DNA from: a virus
DNA length: 64,000 bases
IMG/VR virus record: IMGVR_UViG_3300047551_002099
Span: 15,811 to 79,810 of that record
Reading direction: 5' to 3' (one strand)
Part shown: one piece after another, positions 4,762 to 64,000 of the stretch
Layout: each line of letters begins with the position of its first letter
Position numbering within the stretch: the first letter of the stretch is position 1
The notes under the pieces: generated by a model
Seen by the model: the letters and a program-made list of their open reading frames with translations, nothing else
What the model was told of the DNA's origin: nothing
Databases searched by the model: none
Program-made: the position numbers and the translations under genes

Positions 4762-7700
4762 ATGGTAGATTACTCATTTCCGAACATTTCCTTCAACTCT
4801 AAGGTTATTGGCCCCGCACCTGTTAACCCCGGCTGGCGCGATAAATATGCCATTATCGGTGAGTTTGACCGTGGCCCTGTTGTACCTGTTCAGTCTGCAG
4901 ACCGGTCTGTTTTAGCTTCCCTCTACGGGGAAGATACCAGCTCTGGTTCTATTGCACTGCAGCAGGCGATGCGCCAAGGTGCTACAAACGCTGTTGTAGC
5001 CCGTGTCGTACCCAATAGCCTTCCCTCCCAACTCTATTTTGAGATTGCTGGCGACAGCCTTTTTGTTCAACCCTCGACGGGTTACGAAAGCGCAATCGCC
5101 AACACCAACGTATTAGATACGTTTAATTACACCACCGGTTTCAAGTTCACTCTGGATTACATCGGTGAACCTAACTTTGTTAGAACTGCTTATGGCGACA
5201 TCAGCAGCCGTAACCGCCCCATCGACCACCCCACCTTCAACGGTCGGGCTCAGATGAACTACATGGTTACGCGTGTACAGTCTGCCGACGCTGCCCAACG
5301 AGTTGTTTACGAAGATAGCAACGAGGTTCTTGAAGTTACTCTTCACAACAGCAGCCGCGACGACTACCAACTCGTTACTTTCGAAGAAGGTAACAACGTT
5401 TACGTTGAGCAATACCTAAAGCCCGGCTTTACCCTGCGCTCTTCCACTAGCGCTCAACAAGAAGGTCTTGTGATCGCTTGTGAACCCTACGAATATAGTG
5501 AAGGGGTAAAAGCTGTTCTGGTTAAAGGTCACTACAGCCCGGCTAACGCTTACAGCGGCGCTGTTGTTACAACCAGCGGGCTTTACAACGTTACGGTTAC
5601 TGACTTTAAGAAAGGGTCTAACGTAAACAGCCCCACCCTATCTATCCTGGCTCAATCGGTTGCCCTGGTTGGTGGCAGCGCCTATGAAGTTAGCGCCGCT
5701 GTTAACAACGGTGGGAACATTGATGTCACCTTAGCAACTAATGTAACCGGCAGCGCTAAAGAAGACGCTCCTGTTTCCTTTGTTCCTAAGGTCACCACTG
5801 TCACCTACGACTCGGTTGATAAAGTTACCGATATTACCTTGACTGGTGTCTTGGCTAACACGGACATCGCTGTTGGCAGCAAGCTAACCTTTAGTGCTAA
5901 AGATGCTTCTTACACTGTTTCGGCTATCAGCACTGCCTGGTCTTCCGGCACTGTTACTGTCGAAGTAGAAGGTGACGTTCGCGCTGGTGTCAAAGTCAAA
6001 GACTACGCTTTGGTAACGACCGCTGATTCCAACGAACAGTTAGACACCTTTAAAGTTCACTTCCCGTCTGTCACGCAGTATATTCTGGGTTACAGTCTCC
6101 GCTCCTTTGACAACAGCGCGCTGCAGTCCCGGTCTACTAGCCGCTCCTATCTGACGATTGGGTCGTCTGCTACTAAACCAGTTCGCTACTTCGATGGTTT
6201 TGTGAACTACGCTGTTGATGCTTGCCTAGTCTTCCAAGAAGGTGACGGTGGTGTTTATCATAAGATTCCTTACCTGACCGGTCTGAAGAACCTACAAGAA
6301 GCCCAGCTTCTTGAGCGGGAGTACTTTGGGCTTGAGCTTTACTTTGGTCGTCCCAATGACCGTAAAGTTTACCTAGCTGAAACCACCATCTTTAACATTC
6401 CGCTTGTTAAGAGTGAAGCGGTAATCGGCGGTGAAAGCGGCAGTGAAACGGCTTACCCGAAAGGAACCCTGGCAACAACGATTCTTCGTGACCTTGAGTA
6501 TGCTATCTACGGTGACCCGGCCATGGCGTCCATGGTTAAGGACATCAAAGTAGATATTACGCTGCTGCCCTTTAAGTTCAGCGGGGAAGCTTCTTTTGTT
6601 GGCGTTAAATCCAACCGCCTGCGCTGGAACTTGGAACGTTATGTTGCCGGCCCTAAAGCGGTTTACTCTTCTAAGTCTGGGGCTGTACTGACCTTTGACG
6701 CGGTGCCTGATATTATCCTGGGCAAAGAAGACGACTACAGCGTCATTATCGACGGTGTTGCCTACCCCCTGACCGCTGCGTCTTCTACTACAGTTACTGT
6801 AGACGTTGATGATCTAAGCGTCCTGGATATTCTATCCACTGGTGACGAACTGGAGTTCCGCTCCCAAGTTCAGACCAAAGATATCCTAATCCGTCGTCAG
6901 CCTGAAGTTGACTTCGACACTCTAGACTACGGGCTAGACAAGTTCTATCCCTTCATCAACGGTCGGGATACGGCTTCCCACGCCTACGCTGATTTCTACG
7001 CACTGAATGGTAAATCCCTGATTCGCGTCGTTGCTTTAAACCCTGGTATTTACGGCAACAACATTAAAGTCAGCATCGTCCCCGATGAAGTTACCGTTAA
7101 TAGCGCTAAGTTCTACCTACAAGTAGAAGACACCAACCCTGGTGTGATTCTTGGTGGGCCTAAAACTGAACTGTGGTACCTAGACAACCGGGAAATTGAC
7201 CCTGAAACTGGCGCTTACCTGTCGGTTAAGCAGTCGAACCTAGTTCGCGCTTACTTCCTACCTGTAATCGAGCCGGTTAACGTTAGCGACTTAATCAACA
7301 CGATTGATGAGTCTCTGTTCCAAGGGCTGCCTCTGCGGATTGCACCACCTTTAGAAGTCCAAGATTCGGCTTATGCCTCTGGTATCACCCGTGTCACTTC
7401 CCAAGGGGGCTCTTTCATCCGTAATGTTACCCTCTCTGGTGGAACTGAGTTTGTTGACCCTGCCCCTGACGCGGCTATCCGCGCTCGCCGGGATGGTTAC
7501 CTAGCTGCTCTCCGCTCTCTGGAAAAAGAAGATGTTGCTTGGATTGCTATCGCTGGCATCTACTACGGCGACAACGACTACCAAGAAGTCTTTGACGAGC
7601 TAAAAGCGCAGTGTGAACGCGCCACCACCTTGAACGGCCTCCGTCGCGGTGTTGTGAGCCTGGCTCCTAATGTGTCTCCCCGTCAAGCCTCTGTCCTCCG

Positions 7701-8358
7701 TGACCGGATTAACAGCGACAAGATTGTTCAAATTGCTGGTTCTATCCAAGGGGTTAACCTGAACGGTCAGATTTACCAAACTCAAGGCGCTACTGGCATC
7801 TACGTTGGTCTCCGCTGCGCCCGTCCGCCCCATATCTCTACCGCTTCTACCTACAGTGGTGGTTACGCCGAAAACGTAAGTTTCAGCAACATCAAATCTT
7901 CTCCTGATGTGTTAGACGCCTACACCCGCGGCGGTACGGAAGTGCTCTTCTACGATTCCGGTCTGAAGCTCTTTAAGTTCTTGAACGGGATTACCACCAG
8001 CCGCGACCCCAACAAGAAGTATGTATGTGTGCTTGAAGTTTGGGACCAAATGAAGCACGACCTTTACAACTACTTGCAGTACGTCCGGTCTGAGCCCAAC
8101 ACTCGCGACCTTCAAAAACGGGTTGCCTCTTCTGTAGATGCTTATCTACAACAGAAGTACCGCGACGACTGGTTCATGCGGATTGCTCCTACGATCTGTG
8201 GGCCTGCTAATAACACCGAAGCCGATATGATTCGTGGCAAGCTGTTTATCACGGTACGGGCTACGCCTACGTTCCCTGCTGACTTCATTGTCGTTAACGA
8301 CATTATGGATCTCAGCGAGACCTTCAGCTTTGAAACGCAGCCTATTAGTTCTTTCTAG
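4762..8358 (+). CDS. contractile tail sheath protein
   Basis: N-terminal AIIGEFDRGP, central ALNPGIYGNNIKVSI, TLSGG, and C-terminal ICGPANNTEADMIRGKLFITVRATPTFPADFI, all typical of sheath proteins. Confidence 0.92.
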   Translation: MVDYSFPNISFNSKVIGPAPVNPGWRDKYAIIGEFDRGPVVPVQSADRSVLASLYGEDTSSGSIALQQAMRQGATNAVVARVVPNSLPSQLYFEIAGDSLFVQPSTGYESAIANTNVLDTFNYTTGFKFTLDYIGEPNFVRTAYGDISSRNRPIDHPTFNGRAQMNYMVTRVQSADAAQRVVYEDSNEVLEVTLHNSSRDDYQLVTFEEGNNVYVEQYLKPGFTLRSSTSAQQEGLVIACEPYEYSEGVKAVLVKGHYSPANAYSGAVVTTSGLYNVTVTDFKKGSNVNSPTLSILAQSVALVGGSAYEVSAAVNNGGNIDVTLATNVTGSAKEDAPVSFVPKVTTVTYDSVDKVTDITLTGVLANTDIAVGSKLTFSAKDASYTVSAISTAWSSGTVTVEVEGDVRAGVKVKDYALVTTADSNEQLDTFKVHFPSVTQYILGYSLRSFDNSALQSRSTSRSYLTIGSSATKPVRYFDGFVNYAVDACLVFQEGDGGVYHKIPYLTGLKNLQEAQLLEREYFGLELYFGRPNDRKVYLAETTIFNIPLVKSEAVIGGESGSETAYPKGTLATTILRDLEYAIYGDPAMASMVKDIKVDITLLPFKFSGEASFVGVKSNRLRWNLERYVAGPKAVYSSKSGAVLTFDAVPDIILGKEDDYSVIIDGVAYPLTAASSTTVTVDVDDLSVLDILSTGDELEFRSQVQTKDILIRRQPEVDFDTLDYGLDKFYPFINGRDTASHAYADFYALNGKSLIRVVALNPGIYGNNIKVSIVPDEVTVNSAKFYLQVEDTNPGVILGGPKTELWYLDNREIDPETGAYLSVKQSNLVRAYFLPVIEPVNVSDLINTIDESLFQGLPLRIAPPLEVQDSAYASGITRVTSQGGSFIRNVTLSGGTEFVDPAPDAAIRARRDGYLAALRSLEKEDVAWIAIAGIYYGDNDYQEVFDELKAQCERATTLNGLRRGVVSLAPNVSPRQASVLRDRINSDKIVQIAGSIQGVNLNGQIYQTQGATGIYVGLRCARPPHISTASTYSGGYAENVSFSNIKSSPDVLDAYTRGGTEVLFYDSGLKLFKFLNGITTSRDPNKKYVCVLEVWDQMKHDLYNYLQYVRSEPNTRDLQKRVASSVDAYLQQKYRDDWFMRIAPTICGPANNTEADMIRGKLFITVRATPTFPADFIVVNDIMDLSETFSFETQPISSF

Positions 8359-53758: not shown

Positions 53759-54224
53759 CTTTATCTTTAGTTTTAGGCTTCTTTTTACTACTTTCAATAT
53801 GCTTAGTCGCTTGACTAGATATACCTAACTGCTCAGGAGTTAAATTACCTCTAGTTAGGGCGTCGGCGATGTTATGCTCCCGGGGAATCCACTGCATACT
53901 CCAACTCTCGAAGCAGCTAAGTAGGTCTTTTGCGTAGGTGAGGGCAATATATAAATGAGCTTGTTTGGTGTTCCAATCACCATTAGAGCACTTAACTACT
54001 AGGTCGCTATCGCCATAGATTTCGATATGCTGAACGCCCATTTGAATAGCTTTGGTTAGTCCTAGGATTAACCCACCGAACTCAGCGCTGTTGTTGGTGC
54101 CTGTGCCCATGAACTGGGAGTATTCGTGTTTTGTATCGTCTGGGGTGATTAAGACAGCGCCAGCGGTGCAATGGCCCGGGTTACTCGGTGCTGCGCTGCC
54201 ATCAAAGAATAGAATTGCTTTCAT
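53745..54224 (-). CDS. rnhA: ribonuclease HI
   Basis: FFDGS, TNNSAEF, GDSDLVV and WIPREHNIADAL carry the D-E-D-D catalytic set. Confidence 0.92.
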   Translation of the reverse strand: MKAILFFDGSAAPSNPGHCTAGAVLITPDDTKHEYSQFMGTGTNNSAEFGGLILGLTKAIQMGVQHIEIYGDSDLVVKCSNGDWNTKQAHLYIALTYAKDLLSCFESWSMQWIPREHNIADALTRGNLTPEQLGISSQATKHIESSKKKPKTKDKVSRP

Positions 54225-54236
54225 AAGCCTCCGAAG

Positions 54237-54278
54237 AAAAAAAATAAAGCCTGCTATCCTATTATATCAAGCAGGCTT
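54237..54278 (-). terminator. intrinsic terminator after the SH3 gene, with an extended -10 (TGATATAAT) inside the hairpin
   Basis: Minus strand AAGCCTGCT-TGATATAATAGGAT-AGCAGGCTT followed by TATTTTTTTT. TGnTATAAT at 54269-54261 points at rnhA. Confidence 0.7.
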
Positions 54279-54286
54279 GGTGTTAC

Positions 54287-54580
54287 TTAATCAGCGCTAA
54301 CGCAGATATAGTCGTCACGTACCCAACCGGTGCGACCACCATAGGTCTGCACAGCAGTCCAATACATGCCGTTGACGGGTACGCTACGGACTGGGGTGAT
54401 AATATTTCCGGCATATAGCTTAGCTAGGCTACGAGCGCTTGTGGAAGGCGCTGAGCGGAGATGTACAAAGCTGCCTGGGTCATTAACACAGATATAAGCA
54501 GTTGGCCGAGCGTAGACACCGGGTACTGGAACGTAGCCTGGTCCGACTTGAGCTTGCGTCAGGAGTAAGAGTTCTAACAT
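54287..54580 (-). CDS. SH3b-domain protein with short hydrophobic leader
   Basis: VHLRSAPSTSARSLAKLYAG...WTAVQTYGGRTGWVRDDYI is a bacterial SH3 consensus. Confidence 0.85.
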   Translation of the reverse strand: MLELLLLTQAQVGPGYVPVPGVYARPTAYICVNDPGSFVHLRSAPSTSARSLAKLYAGNIITPVRSVPVNGMYWTAVQTYGGRTGWVRDDYICVSAD

Positions 54581-55128
54581 TAGATACTGACCTCTAATAA
54601 TTGAATGTTGTAGCGACTGATGAGCTTATACAGCAGGTCGCGGTCAGCCACAGTAGTTGTGGCAATACAGCCTGCGGTGCCGTCTTCTTTGCGGTTCTTT
54701 TCAAAGGATGGGTCAACATGGAAGCCTAATGCAGAACGACCGGTGTTGAACAGCGGGGTAATGTCTAGAAACTTACCGCCGACTTCGTGTTCACTACTGG
54801 TGCGGGCGTAACGATTAACTCGATAGCGACCGTTAGGTGGCGGGGCTTCTGTTCCAGCGACGTGGCGGTTTTTAGATTGGGTATGAGCGCGCCCAGCTAC
54901 GGTTTCAAACTCCGCCATTACTACTCCGCTGACAATAACGGTCAGCTTATAGATGGGATTGCCGAACTTGTTTACTGTCCCGCTAGGGGTTAGCACCAGC
55001 TTAGTAACGGCTTCTTTTGTTGGAGCAGCACTAATCGGTGGTGGGATAACCTCTATGGGTTGAGAAGGAGTTGGAGTAGCCCCGCAGGCTCCCAGACTTA
55101 TTAACGCGAGTAATAGAATTGCTTTCAT
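54580..55128 (-). CDS. lipoprotein with L,D-transpeptidase (YkuD/Tlde1-like) catalytic motif
   Basis: Lipobox LGAC, PPPNGRYRV, and the H-x14-GC motif GFHVD...GTAGCI. Confidence 0.7.
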   Translation of the reverse strand: MKAILLLALISLGACGATPTPSQPIEVIPPPISAAPTKEAVTKLVLTPSGTVNKFGNPIYKLTVIVSGVVMAEFETVAGRAHTQSKNRHVAGTEAPPPNGRYRVNRYARTSSEHEVGGKFLDITPLFNTGRSALGFHVDPSFEKNRKEDGTAGCIATTTVADRDLLYKLISRYNIQLLEVSI

Positions 55129-55154
55129 TTTTGAACTTGATGTGGTTAACTAAG

Positions 55155-56288
55155 TTAAGCTGTTTGTAGAATGTTGTCGAACTTAACTGGGATTTCATCG
55201 GCGCGCCAGTCATCTGCGGTTAACGCTTTAATTCCCTTGGCTAAACCTTCAGCAGCTTCGACAGACTCAAATAGAATTGCGTCGTCGATGTCTTGACTGA
55301 AACTTAGCTTTAACGACTTGTCTAAAGCTGACTTGAGAACTTTAGCGTTAAGGTACCAAGTTTTACTCTGACGGTCGCAGAGGATTGTATGCCCGGTACG
55401 GTTTACCTCGAAACTAGTTCCGTCAGCGCTAGCATACTGAGATAAGAAGTCCTTAAGTTGCTCAGCTTCGTTGTAGGGCATCAAAAACCGTTTCTGCCAA
55501 TCGTCATCAAACACGATGCCGTTGTCTGCCATAGACATCCAGCTCCAAGATTGGTTCTGCACCCGAGCTACCGTGAATTGAGATTGATTAAACGCTTTGG
55601 TCTGGAGTTCAATTGGTGCGCTTCCTACCTGTGTAGCGTTTAGCTTGGAACTATCTTCGATTAGTCCAAAGTCGTATCCTAACCGGGTGGCTAACGCTTT
55701 AACGCCGCTACGCATCTGGTTATCGGTTAAGTTTACAGACCCCCGCCGCCGCTTAGACAGTTCTAACTGAACAATTAAGTTCCACTCTTCACAGGTATAG
55801 TGTGGGTTCTTTTTCGGCGCTTTGTTTACAGTTCCAGTACTTAAACACAGAGTAATGCCGTAGAGACCTGTAGTTGTATAGTATTTGATCGGGCGCGACT
55901 CACCCTTTGAGCTAACCCAGATGGACTCAGCCAGGAAATCGTAGGCTTTACTTAGATCTTCTGGTAGGTACCCGTAGCCATTTTCTGTGGTTCCGGTGAT
56001 ATAGTCTTTGTACCGCTGGCAGACGGAGTTCACTCGCACTTGCAAAAGAGTGCTTACTTTTTTATCAGTTGATAGACGCAGGCCTAATAAGTCTAACCAC
56101 TCTGTCTTAGTGAAAGGTCCTTGCCCAGCAATAGTGGAGAGAGGGTTAATTTCTAAGTTTTTGACGGTGGTATAGGTTAACCGCAGCTGCTCTGGAGTCA
56201 TTTCATCCAAAGTAATTCCCTTTCTTCCGCTGGAGGGAATCCATTTAATCTGTCCGGTTAGTTCTTTTAATTTTTCGATAGATAACAC
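55155..56288 (-). CDS. hypothetical protein with internally duplicated domains
   Basis: GGAGG RBS upstream. Repeats IKWIPSSG...TKTEWLDLL and IWVSSKG...TCEEWNLIV. Confidence 0.65.
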   Translation of the reverse strand: MLSIEKLKELTGQIKWIPSSGRKGITLDEMTPEQLRLTYTTVKNLEINPLSTIAGQGPFTKTEWLDLLGLRLSTDKKVSTLLQVRVNSVCQRYKDYITGTTENGYGYLPEDLSKAYDFLAESIWVSSKGESRPIKYYTTTGLYGITLCLSTGTVNKAPKKNPHYTCEEWNLIVQLELSKRRRGSVNLTDNQMRSGVKALATRLGYDFGLIEDSSKLNATQVGSAPIELQTKAFNQSQFTVARVQNQSWSWMSMADNGIVFDDDWQKRFLMPYNEAEQLKDFLSQYASADGTSFEVNRTGHTILCDRQSKTWYLNAKVLKSALDKSLKLSFSQDIDDAILFESVEAAEGLAKGIKALTADDWRADEIPVKFDNILQTA

Positions 56289-56359
56289 AGTAACCTCCTA
56301 TGAGTATAGGTAACTAAATCTGGACTAATTTTGTATTGCACTTATTTTTTGTTTAACAG

Positions 56360-56399
56360 AAAAAGACGCTAGAGGTTTGTGGTAACCTCTAAGGTCTTT
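56360..56399 (-). terminator. intrinsic terminator closing the Ubl operon
   Basis: Minus strand AAAGACCTTAGAGGTT-ACCACA-AACCTCTAGCGTCTTTTT. Confidence 0.7.
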
Positions 56400-56408
56400 C
56401 GTTTGTGT

Positions 56409-57116
56409 CTACAGAAACCGACCTTCAGTCGCCAAGGTTAATTGGGCGCCGCTATAGTTGAGCCTAAATGGCAACGGCTTGTTTTCTAGTAGCGCGTAGA
56501 CAACTTCATTAGTCATCAATGCACTGGCGAAGTTGGCGTTGATTAATTGAGGGCTGGACACGGCTTCGTAGCCACAACTACCACGGGGCTGGTCGCTAGG
56601 ACGTTCGTAGTTAGTAGCTACGTCGAAGGGGTGAACCGGACGTAGTTTACCTTCCACGCGGGAGTACCAGAGGCAGGTAGCAGTATGGAAGTCGTTACCT
56701 GGTAGGACGCAGGCGAAGTCCAACATTGGGTCGAGGTCGTCTAGGTCTTTGATAACTTCGTTGCGGGCGGACTCAGAGTCAACGGCTAATACTACCAGCG
56801 CCGCGCCGGGTTCGTCACAGTGAGTAATATATTCCTCCAGCTGGGTACGAAACTTGTACCGCCGCACGAAGTCTGGTACCGCACTGATATTACAGACAGA
56901 CTCTAACCGCTTAGCAGCGGCGGCAGCTTTGTTCATACCTACGAAGGCAGGGTCGAATAATTGCCTTACGCTATTAGACGATTCATACTCATCGCCGTCG
57001 TACACACAGACGTTCTTGGTGCCTTCCTTGTGATAAGCTAACAGCCGGACTAAAGGCTCTAATAGAATCGAACCGGTTCCACCGGCGCCAATGACGTGGG
57101 CACTAGAAAATTTCAT
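56409..57116 (-). CDS. E1-like ThiF-family adenylating enzyme
   Basis: VIGAGGTGS nucleotide-binding loop, DGDEYESSNSVRQ, GMNKA, AVDSESAR, candidate catalytic Cys in RGSCG, then QLINAN. Confidence 0.9.
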   Translation of the reverse strand: MKFSSAHVIGAGGTGSILLEPLVRLLAYHKEGTKNVCVYDGDEYESSNSVRQLFDPAFVGMNKAAAAAKRLESVCNISAVPDFVRRYKFRTQLEEYITHCDEPGAALVVLAVDSESARNEVIKDLDDLDPMLDFACVLPGNDFHTATCLWYSRVEGKLRPVHPFDVATNYERPSDQPRGSCGYEAVSSPQLINANFASALMTNEVVYALLENKPLPFRLNYSGAQLTLATEGRFL

Positions 57117-58047
57117 TCTTGGCTCCTAAGATTTCAAATTTGGATTTAGTGGATAAGGTTTTTGAGTAAAGCACCAAGTCGCGGCAGGTCGTTAAGTACC
57201 CACTGGGAGTTTTCTTTACCCAGCCAACCACGTAGGTTTTATCGTGTTTAGGCCGGTAGTGGTGGCTTAAAGGGACTGTCTCGAACAGCTTCCCGCGGTC
57301 GGTAATTACCATTGCTTGAGGTCTTTTGGTAGCGACTTTCAAGGCTAAATCAGAAGACCGAAAGGAAGTAGCTTCTTCTAGACTAAGGTGCGGCGGGGTG
57401 GGACTGGTTCGCTGGGCATACTCTTCATGGTCGTAGCTACTAAGTAGAAGTTCCGTGCTGCGGTCGTTTGTCCCCTGGGCCAGGTCTTGGTTAAAGTTGC
57501 TGGTGAAGAACGTATTGAACGCTTCCAGATGGTCGCGCGGCTGTTCTGCTCTACCCCAACAAATCTCACCGTTATGGTAAACGTTAGCTAACCGGTAGGG
57601 CACGTAGGTGCCGTCTTTGGTAACCGCAAATAGTTTCCAGCTCCCATGGTATATAGATATCAAAGACTTCGGAACGTGGATAGTCTTTGTGCCGTATAAG
57701 TGCTCTTCAACTGTGCATCCCAACCTGCATTTGTTGTCAAATACGCGGAGTGTGCCACCATCGCAAAGCTCGCACTCATCCATGAAGGCTCTCCTATATG
57801 TCTGCAGTTCGAAGAATTTGTAATCGGCCCGCTCGAAGGCAGTTGTCTTGATAAACAACTTAGTAATGTCATCTATAGGTTTGTAATAGAAACAACCTTT
57901 GCAGGTCTCTTCAAACGAGTCTTGGCGGTTATAGCGGATGTCAATGCTGAAGGGGTCAAACAAGCAGGAGATTTTTATCCTGTTGCTTTTGTTGATACTA
58001 AAAATGGCCCCCGCCGCGATGGACGGGAACCGAAGCACTTTGAACAT
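57103..58047 (-). CDS. prokaryotic E2-like protein (Prok-E2 family D/PRTRC protein B type), paralogue 2
   Basis: PYRLANVYHNGEICWG...FNTFFTSNFNQDL. Cys-rich N-terminus (CKGC, CELC, CRLGC). Confidence 0.75.
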   Translation of the reverse strand: MFKVLRFPSIAAGAIFSINKSNRIKISCLFDPFSIDIRYNRQDSFEETCKGCFYYKPIDDITKLFIKTTAFERADYKFFELQTYRRAFMDECELCDGGTLRVFDNKCRLGCTVEEHLYGTKTIHVPKSLISIYHGSWKLFAVTKDGTYVPYRLANVYHNGEICWGRAEQPRDHLEAFNTFFTSNFNQDLAQGTNDRSTELLLSSYDHEEYAQRTSPTPPHLSLEEATSFRSSDLALKVATKRPQAMVITDRGKLFETVPLSHHYRPKHDKTYVVGWVKKTPSGYLTTCRDLVLYSKTLSTKSKFEILGAKNEIF

Positions 58048-58048
58048 A

Positions 58049-59251
58049 TCAGTATAGGCAGGTGTTGATGATGTCTTCAGCTACAGGCATATAGACGTTC
58101 AAGTCTAGCTTCTGTGCTAACAGTGCAGCTAGCAACTCTTGACCGCGGGGACAAGCCATTAGAGCGTCGGCGTAGATATCCAAGTTGGTTAGAATATCTT
58201 TCAGTGTTTCCTTCTCTTCACCGTTCAGGTCAACGGTTCGCTGGTCACGGAAGTTCTTGAACTCAACTTCGTGCTTGAGTTCATGCTTAATATCCTTCTC
58301 GTAATCGCGGAACTTATTAGCCTGGTTGGTGTAGGTATAGTTCCCGTACCAGCCGTTGGAGTAGCCGGTGGTATAGTAGGTGTCGTCCCAATCGTCCCAT
58401 TCGTCAAGCCCATAGAGCTGGTCGCGGGGCATGAGGTTGGTGTTCGCTGAAGCGGGGGGTGATTTGTACTTAGTAACCCAGGAGTTAGCGCGATAAGCGT
58501 AAGCAGTAGCCCTGGTAACGTAGGTGCTGGCTAACGGAGAAATCTCTACTACCTTGCTGTCGTAAACAGTCATCACCTTACATTTGTCGTTCGAGCCGAC
58601 GGTGGCTACGCCATCCAGGTTTAACAACAAGTCAGGCTGGAAGATATACCGCTTTTTGTTTAAGACGATGGAGCAGCAGATGTCGAACGAATGCGGGGTA
58701 ATCACCCCGATGGTGCAGTGCATCCCCGGTACGCCCAGTTCGCCTTGGTCATCCCGCCCACTCCAAAAGGCGCTCATTGAGTTATGAGAATGCATGGACC
58801 CGGAATGACAGTAGCCTTCCGGTGGAAATACCGTGTATTCTTCCCCGGTAAATAAGTCGCAGCTGTGGGTCGTAACGGCGTCTACAGTGACGCTGGTCAC
58901 CGACTGCATAGGCACGACGACTTTCCACTGACTGGGGTCGTCTACCCCGCGCAGTAGGCACACTTGCACTTCGGTGCTGCCAACGACGTAGGCGGAGCCA
59001 TTGGTCGACATGTAGCTACGGAAGAAGGTGACAATGCCTTGGAGTAAGTGGAAGGGCAGGCGGTCGAACTGTTCTTTTAGCCACATGTAATCGACTTCGG
59101 CGGGCTTGTCGACGCCTTTCGGGTCTTTGATAGGTACGTAGTATTCGCCCCAGTAGCTACTCTTCTGAAGTTTGAAGCAGCCGTCCTTAGTCCGAATGAA
59201 CGGGGCTTTCTCTGTTTCTTTCACCGGCGCGGTGGTTAATGTTTGAGTCAT
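58049..59251 (-). CDS. JAB/MPN+ metallopeptidase (deubiquitinase-like)
   Basis: TEVQV glutamate, VPMQSVTSVTV, and MHSHNSMSAFWSGRDD (H-x-H-x7-S-x2-D). Confidence 0.9.
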   Translation of the reverse strand: MTQTLTTAPVKETEKAPFIRTKDGCFKLQKSSYWGEYYVPIKDPKGVDKPAEVDYMWLKEQFDRLPFHLLQGIVTFFRSYMSTNGSAYVVGSTEVQVCLLRGVDDPSQWKVVVPMQSVTSVTVDAVTTHSCDLFTGEEYTVFPPEGYCHSGSMHSHNSMSAFWSGRDDQGELGVPGMHCTIGVITPHSFDICCSIVLNKKRYIFQPDLLLNLDGVATVGSNDKCKVMTVYDSKVVEISPLASTYVTRATAYAYRANSWVTKYKSPPASANTNLMPRDQLYGLDEWDDWDDTYYTTGYSNGWYGNYTYTNQANKFRDYEKDIKHELKHEVEFKNFRDQRTVDLNGEEKETLKDILTNLDIYADALMACPRGQELLAALLAQKLDLNVYMPVAEDIINTCLY

Positions 59252-59267
59252 AATTTAGTAGGCTCCG

Positions 59268-60830
59268 TTAGAAGGTTGCTAGTTGCTCTTGCTGATCTTG
59301 CTGTTGCCGCTCTTTCATCAACTGTTTTAGTTCAGCCATGGTGAAATACCCCAGTCCGCATACCGAGTTGATTTCATTAGTCTCTAGACCAGTCTCTTCT
59401 TGAATTAGTTGGCAGTACATCAAGGCCTGCTCTAAGATGAAGTGCTGTCTTTCTCTTGACGACCATTTATCAGATACTCCAGAGTCTACAGTTGGAACCT
59501 CAGCGGCTTCTAGTTTTTTCTGTAGCCGTTCCTGAAGTGAACAGGGCTTTACTTCGGCTTTGAGCTTGTTGAGGTCGATAACCTTTAGGTCACTCAACTT
59601 ACCGCCAGCTAAGAAACGAACCAGTGCTTTCCCTGTTGAGTTATTCACTTTGTACACAAACGCCAGGCTGAAGCTAACGTAGTTTGTGTAGGAAAGCCTA
59701 ATAGAAGAGTCATAGACTGGATACGGTCGGAACTTTAAGGTCATTTCACTTCTTAAAGAGACGGTTACTGGTAACGAAGGAGACTGGCACATCAATAGCC
59801 CAATTACGTCGTTGTCGGCGTAGTAAGAGTCGTATGCTCCGTCGTAAAGAGTAAAGTCTTTTTCCAGGTGGTCTAGAAAGCTTTCGTTGCTGGTGAATCG
59901 GTAGTAGTGTTCGACCTTGGGGTAGCGGTCATCATCACTTGGGTTATACACCACAGACGGGGTTCCTTCTTCATCGTCTTCGTCTTCGTACTCCCGGGTT
60001 TCGGAGTCGTAAGGCGAGTAAGAATCGTTGTATTCATGAGGAACCAAGTCGTAGTTGAAGGCGCTACTGAAGTAAGTTGCGTAGGCACCGCGAGGGTCGT
60101 AAGGACGCCCCTGTTCACCCCAGCAGATGTCTCCGTCACCGTATACGTTACCCAATAAGTAAGGCACCCCAATAGCGTTGACAGTCTTTACTTCTTGGCC
60201 GTTGAGGGTCTTTACTTTGTCTAAAACGTGTCGTAAGGCAAAGACCTTAAAGTACCCACACCCGACTTCTTCAGCGTCGATACGTCTTAAATCCATGTTG
60301 CTCTGCCATAGTAAATTAGGCACTTTTAGATTCACAGCGGCAGAGAAGGTCTCCCCAGCCCGACACGGCTGGCCATCTTTCAGACGTTGCTCTTCTTCTA
60401 CACCGAGCAGGTAGCTATTTGACAGGCCCGGGCAAGCGTTAGGCAACTTACGGTAGTATTCTTTGTAATAGGGGGTTAAGTCCATCCAACCCAACATTGC
60501 CTTGATTTGATCCTCTTTTGAGCGGTTGAGCAGGTAGGTTCTGCGGGAGTAGGAGTGTCCAGTTATGCTGCGAAGGGTTCTGTTAAAGAACACTTCATCA
60601 TTGGTTAGTTTCTTTGTTAAATGGGTTTTGATGGAGTCTGATGCTTTGCTACGAGCGTTCTGGCTGCATTGTCTACAGCGGTTTGCACTGATGTCGCAGA
60701 CGAGTTCGTCGTCTAGCAGAATTTCTTTTTCTTCTGCTTCAGTGATGTTATAAACTGCCAGTGAGCTGTTACTCGATAGCACGTTAACATAGACTGTCTT
60801 AGTGCCTTTCGGGAAGTAGAATACTTTCAT
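59268..60830 (-). CDS. prokaryotic E2-like protein (Prok-E2 family D type), paralogue 1
   Basis: PYLLGNVYGDGDICWG...AYATYFSSAFNYDL. N-terminal CRQC and further Cys residues. Confidence 0.72.
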   Translation of the reverse strand: MKVFYFPKGTKTVYVNVLSSNSSLAVYNITEAEEKEILLDDELVCDISANRCRQCSQNARSKASDSIKTHLTKKLTNDEVFFNRTLRSITGHSYSRRTYLLNRSKEDQIKAMLGWMDLTPYYKEYYRKLPNACPGLSNSYLLGVEEEQRLKDGQPCRAGETFSAAVNLKVPNLLWQSNMDLRRIDAEEVGCGYFKVFALRHVLDKVKTLNGQEVKTVNAIGVPYLLGNVYGDGDICWGEQGRPYDPRGAYATYFSSAFNYDLVPHEYNDSYSPYDSETREYEDEDDEEGTPSVVYNPSDDDRYPKVEHYYRFTSNESFLDHLEKDFTLYDGAYDSYYADNDVIGLLMCQSPSLPVTVSLRSEMTLKFRPYPVYDSSIRLSYTNYVSFSLAFVYKVNNSTGKALVRFLAGGKLSDLKVIDLNKLKAEVKPCSLQERLQKKLEAAEVPTVDSGVSDKWSSRERQHFILEQALMYCQLIQEETGLETNEINSVCGLGYFTMAELKQLMKERQQQDQQEQLATF

Positions 60831-60846
60831 AGTTTAGAAAGGAAGT

Positions 60847-60883
60847 AAAAAAAGAGAAGACCCCGCGTTAGCAGGGCCATCTC
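60847..60883 (-). terminator. intrinsic terminator between the Ubl gene and the enzyme genes
   Basis: Minus strand GAGATGGCCCTGC-TAAC-GCGGGGTCTTCTC-TTTTTTT. Confidence 0.8.
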
Positions 60884-60901
60884 TAGTTGCAATTCTTTTA
60901 C

Positions 60902-61246
60902 TTACGCGCCTTTGGTGTCCGCGCTGGCAGAGGCGGTGACTAGTTCACCCGCTTTAGGGATGTAGTCTTTGGAGACGTAGGTGGTCTGAATTTTGAAGTT
61001 CAGCCGGCTGACGTCACTTACGCCGATGGAACCGCGGTACTCCTGGACGATTTGCTGCAGGGTTTTGGTGCCGTCCACAGTAGCTACGAACTCTTCGGTT
61101 CCGTAGCGAATGACGATTTGGGACTCAGGGTTGAACTGCTCTTCAGTAAACTCACCTTCGTCGAAATCGGGCTCGAAGTCCGCGAAGAGTTCTTCTTCGG
61201 TAGCTTCGGTGGAGTTAACGGGAGCGTTGGTTTCGTAATCAGACAT
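60902..61246 (-). CDS. ubiquitin-like (beta-grasp) protein with acidic N-terminal extension
   Basis: GAGGA RBS. C-terminal ~70 aa IVIRYG...TLQQIV...DYIPKAGELVT ending DTKGA, like prokaryotic Ubls ending in (T)KG. First gene of an E1/E2/JAB operon. Confidence 0.75.
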   Translation of the reverse strand: MSDYETNAPVNSTEATEEELFADFEPDFDEGEFTEEQFNPESQIVIRYGTEEFVATVDGTKTLQQIVQEYRGSIGVSDVSRLNFKIQTTYVSKDYIPKAGELVTASASADTKGA

Positions 61247-61421
61247 GGGAAATCCTCAATGTTGGTAATGGTTATTAAAACTTGACTCTCTCTTCTAATT
61301 AAGAAGTGCCTATAGCAAAGCCGGCTAAGGAGCCACTAATAGACTTAGGTCATAAGGTTTATTTCTTTGTTTCTTCTTGCCTTCCCTCTTCTATTTTCAC
61401 GCCCATCTACTTAAACTCCGG

Positions 61422-61682
61422 TTAAAACTCTAAGACATAACAGGTTACGGGACCCGCGTTAAACAGAATGTGCCATTTAATATTAGACCGCATCTCTTCT
61501 ATGTCCCACAGATAGCTTAAGTCTAACATAAGAGACTTATCTTCGACATACTTTTCACCGTCGTGCCAGTAGCATCTAAGGGTGCTATAAAGAGCCGGGC
61601 CGCCTTCTACTATGTCTAGGACTTCGTTAAATGTTAAGTAAGCGTATTCCTGCTCTTTGGCTAGAGCTGCAGTTGACGTCAT
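61422..61682 (-). CDS. hypothetical protein
   Basis: 86-aa ORF overlapping the upstream stop (ATGA). Confidence 0.55.
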   Translation of the reverse strand: MTSTAALAKEQEYAYLTFNEVLDIVEGGPALYSTLRCYWHDGEKYVEDKSLMLDLSYLWDIEEMRSNIKWHILFNAGPVTCYVLEF

Positions 61683-61927
61683 TGACTGTGAAACTCCTGA
61701 TACTTCATTAACCCATCGACGGCGCCGTTAACACCTATCTTGCCGGTGGGGGTGATGTAGATAGCGATTAGCTTATCTAACCGCTCAATAAACTCGATAG
61801 CTTTTTGAGCTGGCCCTGTGTTAAGTCCAATTAAGTAAAGCAGCTGTGTCTTTGTCTGCTCACTCTTTGCTTTTTTCTTTAACACGTTGAAGGTTTCTAA
61901 GTCAGTCATGATTCTTCTAGGTCTCAA
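61679..61927 (-). CDS. hypothetical protein (true start may be the ATG at 61909)
   Basis: 82-aa ORF coupled to the next gene. Confidence 0.55.
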   Translation of the reverse strand: MRPRRIMTDLETFNVLKKKAKSEQTKTQLLYLIGLNTGPAQKAIEFIERLDKLIAIYITPTGKIGVNGAVDGLMKYQEFHSQ

Positions 61928-62103
61928 GTAAACGGTATATTTCGCTACATTTATAATAGGTATTCCTCAATGGTAGGTGGGCATGAATATTAAGATAGAC
62001 AGCCGCTTGAGAAAGCAGAACAGTCAATCTATCCGCCGCAGAAATCAGACTCGGGTTCGTCTGCGGCTACGTGTACGGCAATGCTTTGGCGTTGCGTAAC
62101 ACA

Positions 62104-62132
62104 ACAACAGCACGAACGGTTCGTGCTGTTGT
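62104..62132. repeat. 29-bp perfect palindrome containing CACGAAC-N-GTTCGTG, copy 3
   Basis: acaacagcacgaac-g-gttcgtgctgttgt. Confidence 0.9.
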
Positions 62133-62136
62133 GGGT

Positions 62137-62295
62137 TTAGGCAGAGACTGCCCTAACTTTTGTGTCTACGCTTAGCCCCAGCTTCTTCCGGTTCGCGCTA
62201 TATGTTTGAAGCGCTTCTTCTTCGTCTTGGGCTTGGACGAACATTAAAGTGGTCGGTGAGTCAACTTGGGCGTCGATGATTTTAAAGAAGGGCAT
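62137..62295 (-). CDS. small hypothetical protein (52 aa, below ORF-track cutoff)
   Basis: MPFFKIIDAQVDSPTTLMFVQAQDEEEALQTYSANRKKLGLSVDTKVRAVSA*. Confidence 0.5.
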   Translation of the reverse strand: MPFFKIIDAQVDSPTTLMFVQAQDEEEALQTYSANRKKLGLSVDTKVRAVSA

Positions 62296-62345
62296 AGTTT
62301 AAACAGCTAAGTGCGTCACCTTAGTACTATGGCACATTTCTTAAG

Positions 62346-62378
62346 AAAAAGTGAAGGGGGTGCATAGTATGCGCCCCC
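62346..62378 (-). terminator. terminator of the tmRNA/tRNA transcript
   Basis: Minus strand GGGGGCGCATA-C-TATGCACCCCC followed by TTCACTTTTT. Confidence 0.65.
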
Positions 62379-62537
62379 GGTGACCTAGTTGGGTAACAAG
62401 GTTAGGTCAGACCCCGTCATTCATACCGCAACAGCGGTACGTTTGAAAGCAACCACTTGGTTGGCATTTGTTGTTTGCTCATCCGAGCAGGCTTCATCGT
62501 AGTGCCATCCTTTACCAATCGAAACCGTTGCATCCCC
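62379..62537 (-). ncRNA. ssrA: tmRNA coding piece (permuted, two-piece type); tag ANQVVAFKRTAVAV*
   Basis: Starts GGGGATGCAACGGTTTCGA, has GAAGCCTGCTCGGATGAGC, and AAACAACAAAT precedes the GCC resume codon. Tag ORF 62465-62421 resembles cyanobacterial ANNIVxFxRxAxAA tags. Downstream pseudoknot TGACCTA/TAGGTCA with GGGT/ACCC. Confidence 0.92.
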
Positions 62538-62538
62538 G

Positions 62539-62573
62539 TGGTACAAGGTACAGGAGTCGAACCTGTCTAAGCG
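62539..62573 (-). pseudogene. 3' half of split tRNA-Ile2(CAU)
   Basis: CGC-TTAG-ACAGG-TTCGACT-CCTGT-ACCTTGT-ACCA. ACCTTGT pairs with the GCAGGGT start at 63304. Confidence 0.8.
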
Positions 62574-62577
62574 GGCG

Positions 62578-62665
62578 TGGGCAAAGCGGGAATCGAACCC
62601 GCGACCTCTGTTAGAGGCTGCCGGCTTATGAGGCCGGTCCTAGAAACCAACGCTAGTCTTTGCCC
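62578..62665 (-). tRNA. atypical tRNA with CAU anticodon and long variable arm
   Basis: GGGCAAA/TTTGCCC-A acceptor, CTAG/CTAG D-stem, CCGGC-CTCATAA-GCCGG anticodon arm, GCCTCT-AAC-AGAGGT variable arm, GCGGG-TTCGATT-CCCGC T-arm. No encoded CCA. Confidence 0.85.
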
Positions 62666-62717
62666 TGGAGACCCGAACCTAGATGTATAATAGAAGTATT
62701 TTAGCTTACTATTTATC

Positions 62718-63272
62718 ATGCAAGAACGAGAAAGGTATTTGAACGGCTATAAACTGGTGCATGCTCCTGACAATTTTTCTATTATGGATAGTGAAAATTG
62801 GTCGGGATGGGTGTATGAGCATAGATACGTAATGGAGCAACATTTAGGTAGAGCTCTGACCTCAGAAGAGGTTGTGCACCACTTGGACGGTAATAAGGAT
62901 AATAACCATATCACTAACTTGATAGTGCTCTCTAAGATAGACCACGGTAAGTTACATCGTTGGATGGATAGTAAGATAATCGTGGATAAACCAGAAACTC
63001 AACCTATTATCGTTGAGTGTGCCCACTGCAAAGCTAAATTTAAAAGACTTAATAAAGACTCTAAATATTGCTCTAATGAGTGTGCTCATTATGCCTCAAG
63101 GAAAGTCGTTAGACCTACTGCGGAGCAGTTAGCCAAATTAATCTGGCAATATCCTATGACTCAGCTTGGAGCTATGCACGGTGTTAGTGATAAGGCTGTT
63201 AAAAAGTGGTGTAAAGCCTACGGTATAACCGAGTTTCCTCCTAAAGGTTACTTTTTACGAAAGCTTGCATGA
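62718..63272 (+). CDS. HNH homing endonuclease (inserted antisense in tRNA-Ile2)
   Basis: VYEHRYVMEQHLGR...VVHHLDGNKDNNHITNL, followed by CxxC...CxxxC and an HTH-like tail. TATAAT at 62686. Stop codon lies on the tRNA anticodon loop. Confidence 0.92.
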   Translation: MQERERYLNGYKLVHAPDNFSIMDSENWSGWVYEHRYVMEQHLGRALTSEEVVHHLDGNKDNNHITNLIVLSKIDHGKLHRWMDSKIIVDKPETQPIIVECAHCKAKFKRLNKDSKYCSNECAHYASRKVVRPTAEQLAKLIWQYPMTQLGAMHGVSDKAVKKWCKAYGITEFPPKGYFLRKLA

Positions 63273-63304
63273 GTTCGCTGCCTTAACCGCTCGGCCAACC
63301 CTGC
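63269..63304 (-). pseudogene. 5' half of split tRNA-Ile2(CAU)
   Basis: GCAGGGTTGGCCGAGCGGTTAAGGCAGCGAACTCAT ends exactly at the CAT anticodon and closely resembles the cyanobacterial tRNA-Ile(CAU) 5' half. Confidence 0.85.
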
Positions 63305-63308
63305 AAGG

Positions 63309-63379
63309 CACCTCCTGAAGGAATCGAACCCTCGTATTCGGTTTTGGAGACCGACGTTCTGCCACTGAACTAAGGAGAT
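63309..63379 (-). tRNA. trnW: tRNA-Trp(CCA)
   Basis: ATCTCCT/AGGAGGT-G acceptor, GTTC/GAAC D-stem, TCGGT-CTCCAAA-ACCGA, GAGGG-TTCGATT-CCTTC. Confidence 0.95.
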
Positions 63380-63380
63380 T

Positions 63381-63410
63381 TGGTGGAGATGGGGAGAGTC
63401 GAACACTCCA
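63381..63410 (-). ncRNA. ssrA: tmRNA acceptor piece, 3' segment (T-loop, acceptor 3' strand, CCA)
   Basis: GTTCGACT-CTCCC-CATCTCC-ACCA. CATCTCC pairs with GGGGATG at 62537-62531, giving the AlaRS G3:U70 pair and A73. Confidence 0.88.
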
Positions 63411-63416
63411 TAGAGT

Positions 63417-63445
63417 TTGACTCTTATACAAGTATAAGCTATCAT
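63417..63445 (+). promoter_or_regulatory. sigma70-type promoter for the second HNH gene
   Basis: TTGACT-N17-TATCAT, 6 nt upstream of ATG 63452 (near-leaderless mRNA). Confidence 0.65.
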
Positions 63446-63451
63446 ATACTT

Positions 63452-63934
63452 ATGAAAAAAGCAAAAGCTGACAAAACCCCAAGAACTTGCTTCACCTGTA
63501 AAGCTGATTTTGTCCCTTCTAGCAACCACAAAAATTGTCCTGTATGCCGTTCTTTAGCAAGAAAGCATTTTTGTGACTGCGGCAAGGAGATATGGGAAAA
63601 GTCTACTAGGTGTTTACGATGCCATAATCTCAATAAAACAGGTAAGTCATTGGGTGTTACTTACCACAAGAGAGGTTATGTCATGCGGAGGGTTCATAAG
63701 GAATATGTTTTTGAACATATTCTTGTTATGGAGCGCCATCTCGGTCGTAAGCTACTAGAAGGTGAAAATGTGCACCACATTAATGGTGTTAAAGACGACA
63801 ACCGTATCGAGAATCTTGAGCTGTGGACTCGACCCCAACCGGCTGGAGTTCGCGCCAAAGATATTCTTAAATGGGCTAGACAAGTTATTGAAACCTATGA
63901 GCCTATAGAACATCTGCTTTCAAGTTCTGAGTAG
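63452..63934 (+). CDS. HNH homing endonuclease with Zn-finger N-terminus (inserted antisense in tmRNA)
   Basis: CxxC repeats, then YVFEHILVMERHLGR...NVHHINGVKDDNRIENL. ATG at 63452 is preferred over the ORF-track start. Confidence 0.92.
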   Translation: MKKAKADKTPRTCFTCKADFVPSSNHKNCPVCRSLARKHFCDCGKEIWEKSTRCLRCHNLNKTGKSLGVTYHKRGYVMRRVHKEYVFEHILVMERHLGRKLLEGENVHHINGVKDDNRIENLELWTRPQPAGVRAKDILKWARQVIETYEPIEHLLSSSE

Positions 63935-63939
63935 CGTTG

Positions 63940-63971
63940 CCGTCTTGGCAACCAGCCGCTACGACTATCCC
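63940..63971 (-). ncRNA. ssrA: tmRNA acceptor piece, 5' segment (helix-2 3' strand plus GAC); true 5' end uncertain
   Basis: TCGTAG pairs with CTACGA and TTGCCAA pairs with TTGGTAA of the coding piece, followed by the conserved GAC and the first GG of the T-stem. Confidence 0.75.
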
Positions 63972-64000
63972 AGTTTAAAGACGTATGGAAGGTCTATTGT

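Follow-up and report, generated by a model that had tools for sequence, protein, structure and literature searches.

A phage-borne cassette with a putative capped ubiquitin-like modifier, a conserved acidic tail and a terminator-like hairpin

Described ubiquitin-like systems and the phage cassette

The bacterial ubiquitin-like systems that have been characterised so far are anti-phage host defences (Bil and CBASS Cap2/Cap3). In Type II BilABCD the genes are ordered Ubl, E2, JAB, E1. The ubiquitin-like protein (Ubl) is a single beta-grasp domain whose conserved Gly is the penultimate residue, and it is pre-processed by a JAB-family DUB from the same operon. Some BilA proteins have extra N-terminal regions, and some Type I BilA homologues carry overhangs of 2-9 aa. 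The Type II BilA of Ensifer aridi ends in Gly97-Ala98. BilC cuts after Gly97; left in place, Ala98 would keep ATP from binding in E1 (Chambers et al., bioRxiv 10.1101/2023.09.26.559546). In phages, tail protein I of Lambda/T1 is a Ubl with a conserved C-terminal Gly and is predicted to be released by the adjacent JAB of tail protein K (Iyer et al. 2006, PMC1779556). The eukaryotic precursors of ubiquitin, SUMO and NEDD8 have an extension past the reactive Gly as well, and this is cut off by a deconjugating protease (DUBs/ULPs). SUMO also has a flexible N-terminal extension.

Judged from its sequence, the cassette described here would use the same chemistry as the bacterial defences, on large phages. 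The window, i.e., the whole stretch of 64,000 nucleotides that was analysed, comes from a large tailed phage and carries a tail sheath gene at 4762-8358. The IMG/VR record to which it belongs, a fragment, measures 79.8 kb; a near-identical relative extends over 216 kb. A five-gene block on the minus strand spans 61246 to 56409. It is headed by the Ubl gene (60902-61246, 114 aa), which we recognised from its ORF, 12 homologues, a beta-grasp model and fold matches. The genes that follow encode a large E2-like protein (E2L, 59268-60830, 520 aa), a JAB/JAMM peptidase (58049-59251, 400 aa), a small E2 (E2S, 57103-58047, 314 aa) and a minimal E1 of the ThiF fold (56409-57116, 235 aa), all on the minus strand. 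The E1 has one ThiF domain (Pfam ThiF, 8.6e-15). E2S matches Pfam Prok-E2_D (PF14460) at 27.6 bits, above the gathering cut-off of 25, and the E2L orthologue of a related locus, L005, does so at 33.2 bits. The E2L of the window has no direct Prok-E2_D match, yet it aligns with the invariant Cys-Trp-Gly core. In both E2L and E2S the invariant Cys sits in an N-V-Y..G.I-C-W-G core, and the two paralogues also have in common an N-terminal CxxC...CxG...C module, which is probably Zn-binding. The large E2 of another locus, L006 (9443-10990), ends in a poly-Asp/Glu tail of about 40 residues, and the E2L of the window has an acidic insert.

The JAB peptidase is the candidate enzyme for trimming and deconjugation. 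Its matches to Prok-JAB (14.8 bits, cut-off 25; 21 bits for the L006 orthologue) and PRTRC_A are weak, though none of the residues of its E...HxHx7Sx2D site (E94, H154, H156, S164 and D167) varies among 13 sequences. Thus, the protein appears to be very divergent but to have an intact active site. The order Ubl-E2L-JAB-(E2S)-E1 is kept in five loci, namely the window, the near-identical L001, L005 (77% Ubl identity), L003 (54%) and L006 (about 30%). E2S is found only in the window, L001 and L005, and is missing from L003 and L006. Since the flanking genes differ between loci, the cassette consists of these four to five genes. The comparison of cassette and hairpin covers these five loci and stops short of the distant branch of Ubl relatives (P0009, P0012-P0017). 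A metagenome scan with the E1 alignment returned only L005, and a profile search of genome contigs with JAB returned nothing.

By analogy, the cassette would work like Type II Bil, with a capped Ubl, priming by JAB, and an E2 and E1. However, it is not Type II Bil, because the PADLOC Bil models fail to match (no match for the Ubl, the E2s or JAB, and only E 0.047 for BilD) and because its E1 has one domain, whereas BilD has two, an inactive and an active adenylation domain. In addition, the E2s of BilABCD are of the CEHH family and those here are Prok-E2_D proteins, the cassette often has a second E2, and it is phage-borne rather than part of a bacterial defence island. Compared with the eukaryotic Ubls, there is a Lys and a single Gly here in place of Gly-Gly, a JAMM metalloprotease in place of a Cys protease, and no sequence similarity. 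The best-scoring named families for E1 are those of PRTRC (NCBIfam TIGR03735-03738), which is likewise found on mobile elements. All of these NCBIfam scores are far below the cut-offs (63.4 against 144.8 bits for E1 with PRTRC_ThiF, 17.9 against 101.8 for JAB with PRTRC_A and 17.3 against 131.5 for E2S with PRTRC_B), the ParB-related gene of PRTRC is absent here, and the Ubl matches no PRTRC model. The I-K pair of Lambda/T1 has no E1 or E2 and lies inside the tail-assembly cluster, whereas here there is a full E1/E2 cascade outside the structural block and on the other strand.

We propose that the Ubl is the modifier of a phage-borne conjugation cassette made up of the Ubl, the large E2, JAB, an optional small E2 and the minimal E1. 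It would be made as an inactive precursor, in which Ala114 blocks Gly113 until JAB cuts after the Gly. Gly113 would then be the residue that is adenylated by E1, and JAB would probably remove the tag from conjugates as well. Since attachment would take place via the C-terminus, the N-terminal tail of 40 residues would be exposed on every conjugate. This tail would be what sets the tags of this family apart and is most likely a docking motif. A leaky terminator behind the Ubl gene would pass only part of the transcripts into the enzyme genes, and such partial read-through would provide the consumed tag in excess over its catalysts. As a whole, this explanation (a capped-precursor Ubl, JAB priming, a docking tail, a leaky terminator and a conjugation cassette) seems to us fairly probable. 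What is new in it is the acidic-tailed Ubl family, its carriage by phages and the conserved, probable attenuator. Our literature searches turned up no description of phage-borne Ubl-E1-E2-JAB cassettes, which is no proof that none exists. Together, the cap and the attenuator suggest how such a cassette may be checked and stoichiometrically balanced.

The hairpin behind the Ubl gene

The preliminary description covered 60847-61246, which corresponds to the Ubl gene together with a terminator-like hairpin, and it placed a strong intrinsic terminator directly after the gene. Folding, shuffling and conservation agree with this placement. Between the Ubl and E2L genes there is an intrinsic-terminator-like hairpin with a U-run (60845-60884, minus strand), which is likely an attenuator. 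Its inner stem spans 60878-60859 and its extended stem 60884-60853, and the U-run, of seven U, reaches to about 60845. The 71-nt spacer folds with a dG of -25 kcal/mol; shuffled versions average -11.4 (z = -5.6), and none of 200 folds as well. Among the 32 window genes that were scanned alike, this is the strongest element of hairpin and U-run behind a gene. Its position is also conserved. A hairpin with a U-run is found directly 3' of the Ubl gene in four independent lineages (the window, L003, L005 and L006), even though the stems are unrelated in sequence (perfect pairing over 8, 9 and 15 bp; z between -2.1 and -8.1).

In the four lineages the U-run ends 16, 13, 15 and 0 nt 5' of the next start codon. 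This leaves no room for a separate promoter, so the enzyme transcripts must read through the hairpin. Since read-through is needed for E2L, JAB and E1, a leaky terminator, i.e., an attenuator, is the simplest reading. The same short distance also means that in all loci the structure overlaps the translation-initiation region of E2L, for which no Shine-Dalgarno-like sequence is seen in the window or in L005. This is what gives the main rival its appeal, namely that the hairpin is an RNA-stability or processing element, or tunes the translation of E2L, so that any differential output of the Ubl would be post-transcriptional. We consider it unlikely, because a GC-rich stem with 7-8 U immediately behind it is the canonical form of an intrinsic terminator, and because the U-run has an upstream A-run as its pairing partner, a feature of strong terminators. 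Thus, we favor the attenuator.

Two further hairpins are found in the block. One of them, from the hairpin scan, is terminator-like and lies at the end of the operon (56369-56392, minus strand). The other is strong (58006-58031, minus strand; 10 pairs, 7 of them GC, with a short U-run) and lies just inside the 5' end of E2S, after the JAB stop codon, where it could be a second attenuation point.

The Ubl sequence is present in an RNA library. A 568-nt metatranscriptome contig from another study covers 60957-61501 with zero mismatches; it includes 255 nt upstream of the Ubl gene and all of the gene except its last 55 nt. In the RNA run X7 no contig lies on 54000-60956, where the enzyme genes are, which says nothing about expression since these are assembled contigs. 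Data of this kind give neither levels, ends nor strand.

The Ubl protein: tail, cap and domain

The Ubl gene is real, given that its relatives are 28-96% identical and that most of them begin with M-S-D. A Shine-Dalgarno-like GAGGA lies 6 nt 5' of its ATG (61253-61257, minus strand), and GAGGA or GGAGA precedes the Ubl gene in L005 and L003 too. The family is small. When 1.84 billion representatives were searched exhaustively with a profile, only nine credible small relatives emerged, and a word-indexed search gave one more. Four long matches (P0006-8 and P0010) were rejected as spurious, since they are repeat proteins, e.g., cytochrome c and Ig-like repeats. Metagenome scans with an alignment of a Ubl subgroup and a viral scan with P0016 returned nothing. 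The family alignment (A5) has 13 members, and all loci come from a few metagenomes. Sequence searches of Pfam, PADLOC, NCBIfam, PHROGs and the PDB gave nothing meaningful for the Ubl, and these five databases hold no sequence-level link to any characterised Ubl. At the level of sequence, the protein is outside every named Ubl family, and the tag is new to all five resources.

The first 40 residues (61127-61246, minus strand) form an acidic, lysine-free tail, as seen from its composition and its conservation in the 13 members. The preliminary description was right that this region is very acidic with spaced Phe. It has 14 Asp/Glu, no Lys or Arg, six aromatics and a net charge of about -14.5, while the remaining 74 residues are near neutral. 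A tail of this kind is present in every member (8-18 D/E, K/R absent, 2-7 aromatics) and is therefore a family trait. Its low pLDDT (45-63, AlphaFold) indicates that it is probably disordered, and the tail alone has no match in the PDB. The N-terminal additions described for BilA/BubA are N/G-rich, coiled-coil or DUF1508, and no acidic tail is described among them; the tail here is acidic and aromatic.

Two motifs recur in the tail, L-F-x-D-[FY]-E-x-[DN]-F and, just ahead of the first strand, F-x-E-E-x-F-[ND]-P. With their conserved aromatic positions, the tails look more like a specific docking or binding motif than a generic polyanion. It could also be that the tail is the payload. The E1/E2 cascade would then graft a polyanionic peptide on chosen proteins of the host, of a rival phage or of the phage itself and switch them off or re-route them, with the tail as a mimic of DNA or of the SSB-tail type, while the cap, JAB and attenuator would hold a large stock of inert tag in readiness. 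We regard this as quite improbable. The preliminary description had likewise proposed a polyanionic or nucleic-acid-mimic tag, for which the analyses gave no support. The conserved tail offers a handle on what the phage would gain from protein tagging.

At the other end of the protein, the translation of the minus-strand ORF (61246-60902) reads ...SADTKGA, with the stop codon at 60904-60902. It therefore ends in K-G-A, one residue past the Gly, as had been described. Gly113 is encoded by 60910-60908 and the cap residue Ala114 by 60905-60907, a position that is variable in relatives. Lys112 and the presumed reactive Gly113 close a flexible C-terminal stretch, A-S-A-D-T-K-G (60908-60925, minus strand), for which the evidence is the alignment and a low pLDDT, found in the AlphaFold model at residues 110-112.

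The earlier proposal that the terminal residue masks this Gly finds support in the family alignment. All 13 members have the Lys that precedes the Gly, and the Gly itself is kept in 11 of them and replaced by Ala in two. In the 11 members with Gly, the ends that follow are A, A, N, C, Y, Y, N, none, N, KENV and N; that is, 0-4 unconserved residues lie beyond K-G, and one member ends exactly at the Gly. In three relatives of 77-82% identity, TASASADTKG is identical and the last residue alone varies. This corresponds to the Type II Bil pattern, in which a conserved Gly is followed by up to nine unconserved residues, and by sequence the variable residues after K-G have the signature of a trimmed precursor, with a residue that would be discarded. 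The alignment thus supports the Gly, not the last residue, as the conserved reactive position, although the K-A ends of L006 and of P0014 (K-A-V-V) indicate that the Gly is not absolute. Together with the intact JAB gene nearby, the match with Type II BilA/BilC argues for masking. By analogy, that pair would be the exact published precedent for the cap, and the cap itself is already known biology.

If there were no cap, E1 would activate the last residue whatever it is, here Ala, and JAB would only deconjugate. A bacterial E1 domain, Cap2, does adenylate a substrate that ends in ...RFA, and the L006 Ubl has nothing beyond its K-A. However, the Asn, Cys, Tyr and four-residue KENV ends of the relatives are incompatible with one small activated residue and make direct activation of the terminal Ala unlikely. 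The conserved part is the Lys-Gly ahead of the variable end, one member stops at that Gly, and in BilA an Ala after the Gly sterically blocks ATP. We therefore give this reading little credence.

It is even more doubtful that the cap is real but is removed by a carboxypeptidase of the host or of the phage other than the JAB of the cassette. A single residue would be within reach of a general carboxypeptidase, and the pairing of JAB with the Ubl is itself inferred. Nevertheless, the caps in the family reach four residues, JAB is strictly co-inherited with its catalytic site apparently intact, and BilC offers a precedent. A complex prediction of JAB and Ubl with Zn gives the pairing weak backing. 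Its score was 0.44, while the best control reached 0.00; the runs agreed in at least 46% of contacts, and the partner pLDDT was at least 68. In the calibration, 58 of 80 solved complexes passed this mark, as did two of 110 mismatched pairs, and scores of 0.60 or lower among the passes came from only seven of the 80 solved complexes and from both of the mismatched pairs. Our prediction differed from this calibration in that it used its own alignments and a riding Zn. Moreover, the BilA-BilC complex has been solved, so the pass may reflect likeness to it.

Cleavage by JAB after Gly113 would have a practical consequence for finding the targets. Because Lys112 precedes Gly113, trypsin would leave only a single-Gly remnant (+57 Da) on the target proteins. 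This remnant has the same mass as an iodoacetamide adduct, and a different protease or alkylating agent is therefore needed to map targets.

The domain between tail and cap (residues 41-107, 60926-61126, minus strand) is predicted by AlphaFold, with agreement from Foldseek and VIA, to be a beta-grasp with the order strand-strand-helix-strand-strand-strand. Modelling with three sequences was uninformative (pLDDT 46); with 13 sequences the beta-grasp has a pLDDT of about 75-88, and about 85 across residues 41-107. The best Foldseek matches of the model in the PDB are SUMO, ubiquitin and bacterial BilA, the last being 8tyx_A with E 1.1e-3 and a TMt of 0.68. VIA-align gives Z of 8-10.6 to ubiquitin-like folds, among which is a second BilABCD structure, 8tyz_B. 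In the ESM Atlas, look-alikes score no more than 0.85 and serve as leads only. At the level of the predicted fold, the protein thus holds as ubiquitin-like, and the preliminary description had named it correctly as a Ubl. Its gene heads an E2-JAB-(E2)-E1 cassette.

Beta-grasp carriers of the ThiS/MoaD type also pair with ThiF-type E1s and at times with JAB peptidases (Iyer et al. 2006, PMC1779556). Yet the least credible alternative of all is that the Ubl is such a sulfur carrier, or an adaptor that is not conjugated: the minimal 235-aa ThiF-type E1 and the ThiS and TmoB clusters among the weak Atlas look-alikes would fit it, but an invariant Cys is found in the one or two E2-family proteins that the cassette always includes, there are no sulfur-metabolism genes nearby, and the best folds are not ThiS or MoaD.

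Other phage cassettes and the surrounding region

Phage cassettes with Ubl-type proteins seem to be widespread and diverse. A scan of IMG/VR with the JAB profile gave 20 further phage contigs (L010-L029; 4.5-166 kb, most of them 85-166 kb), whose JABs are more distant. An E1-like gene follows JAB in at least 15 of them, and about 15 have small ORFs that end in KG, KGC, RGG-NQ, KGG-K or SRG, for example L014 2420-2668, L028 1841-2080, L012 4160-4684 and L020 3431-3688. These small ORFs suggest that capped or Gly-ended tags are a recurrent phage theme. In a profile comparison, the Ubl family was unrelated to the 'RAQxKG(C)' proteins of about 80 aa from other phage JAB-E1 loci. A megablast search of isolated phages returned no match.

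Immediately before the minus-strand block of the window there is a single ORF of 7866 aa (30158-53758, plus strand). On the 5' side of the Ubl gene, the stretch 61271-61912 is replaced by 723 unrelated letters in a relative of about 93% identity (DNA contigs of runs X3 and X6). This swap places the boundary of the cassette just upstream of the Ubl gene, and the small ORFs 61422-61682 and 61679-61927 outside the cassette. In the region 61800-64000, ARAGORN finds only tRNA-Met(CAT) at 62577-62665 and tRNA-Trp(CCA) at 63307-63379, with no tmRNA. There are also two insertions with HNH genes (62574-63269 and 63404-63940), and DNA contigs of the relatives (about 93%, runs X3 and X6) join straight across both. 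One join omits 694 nt, with AATT between the two sides, and the other omits 535 nt, with TC between them. Thus, the RNA genes that are split here are continuous in the relatives, and both HNH genes are mobile insertions of recent origin.
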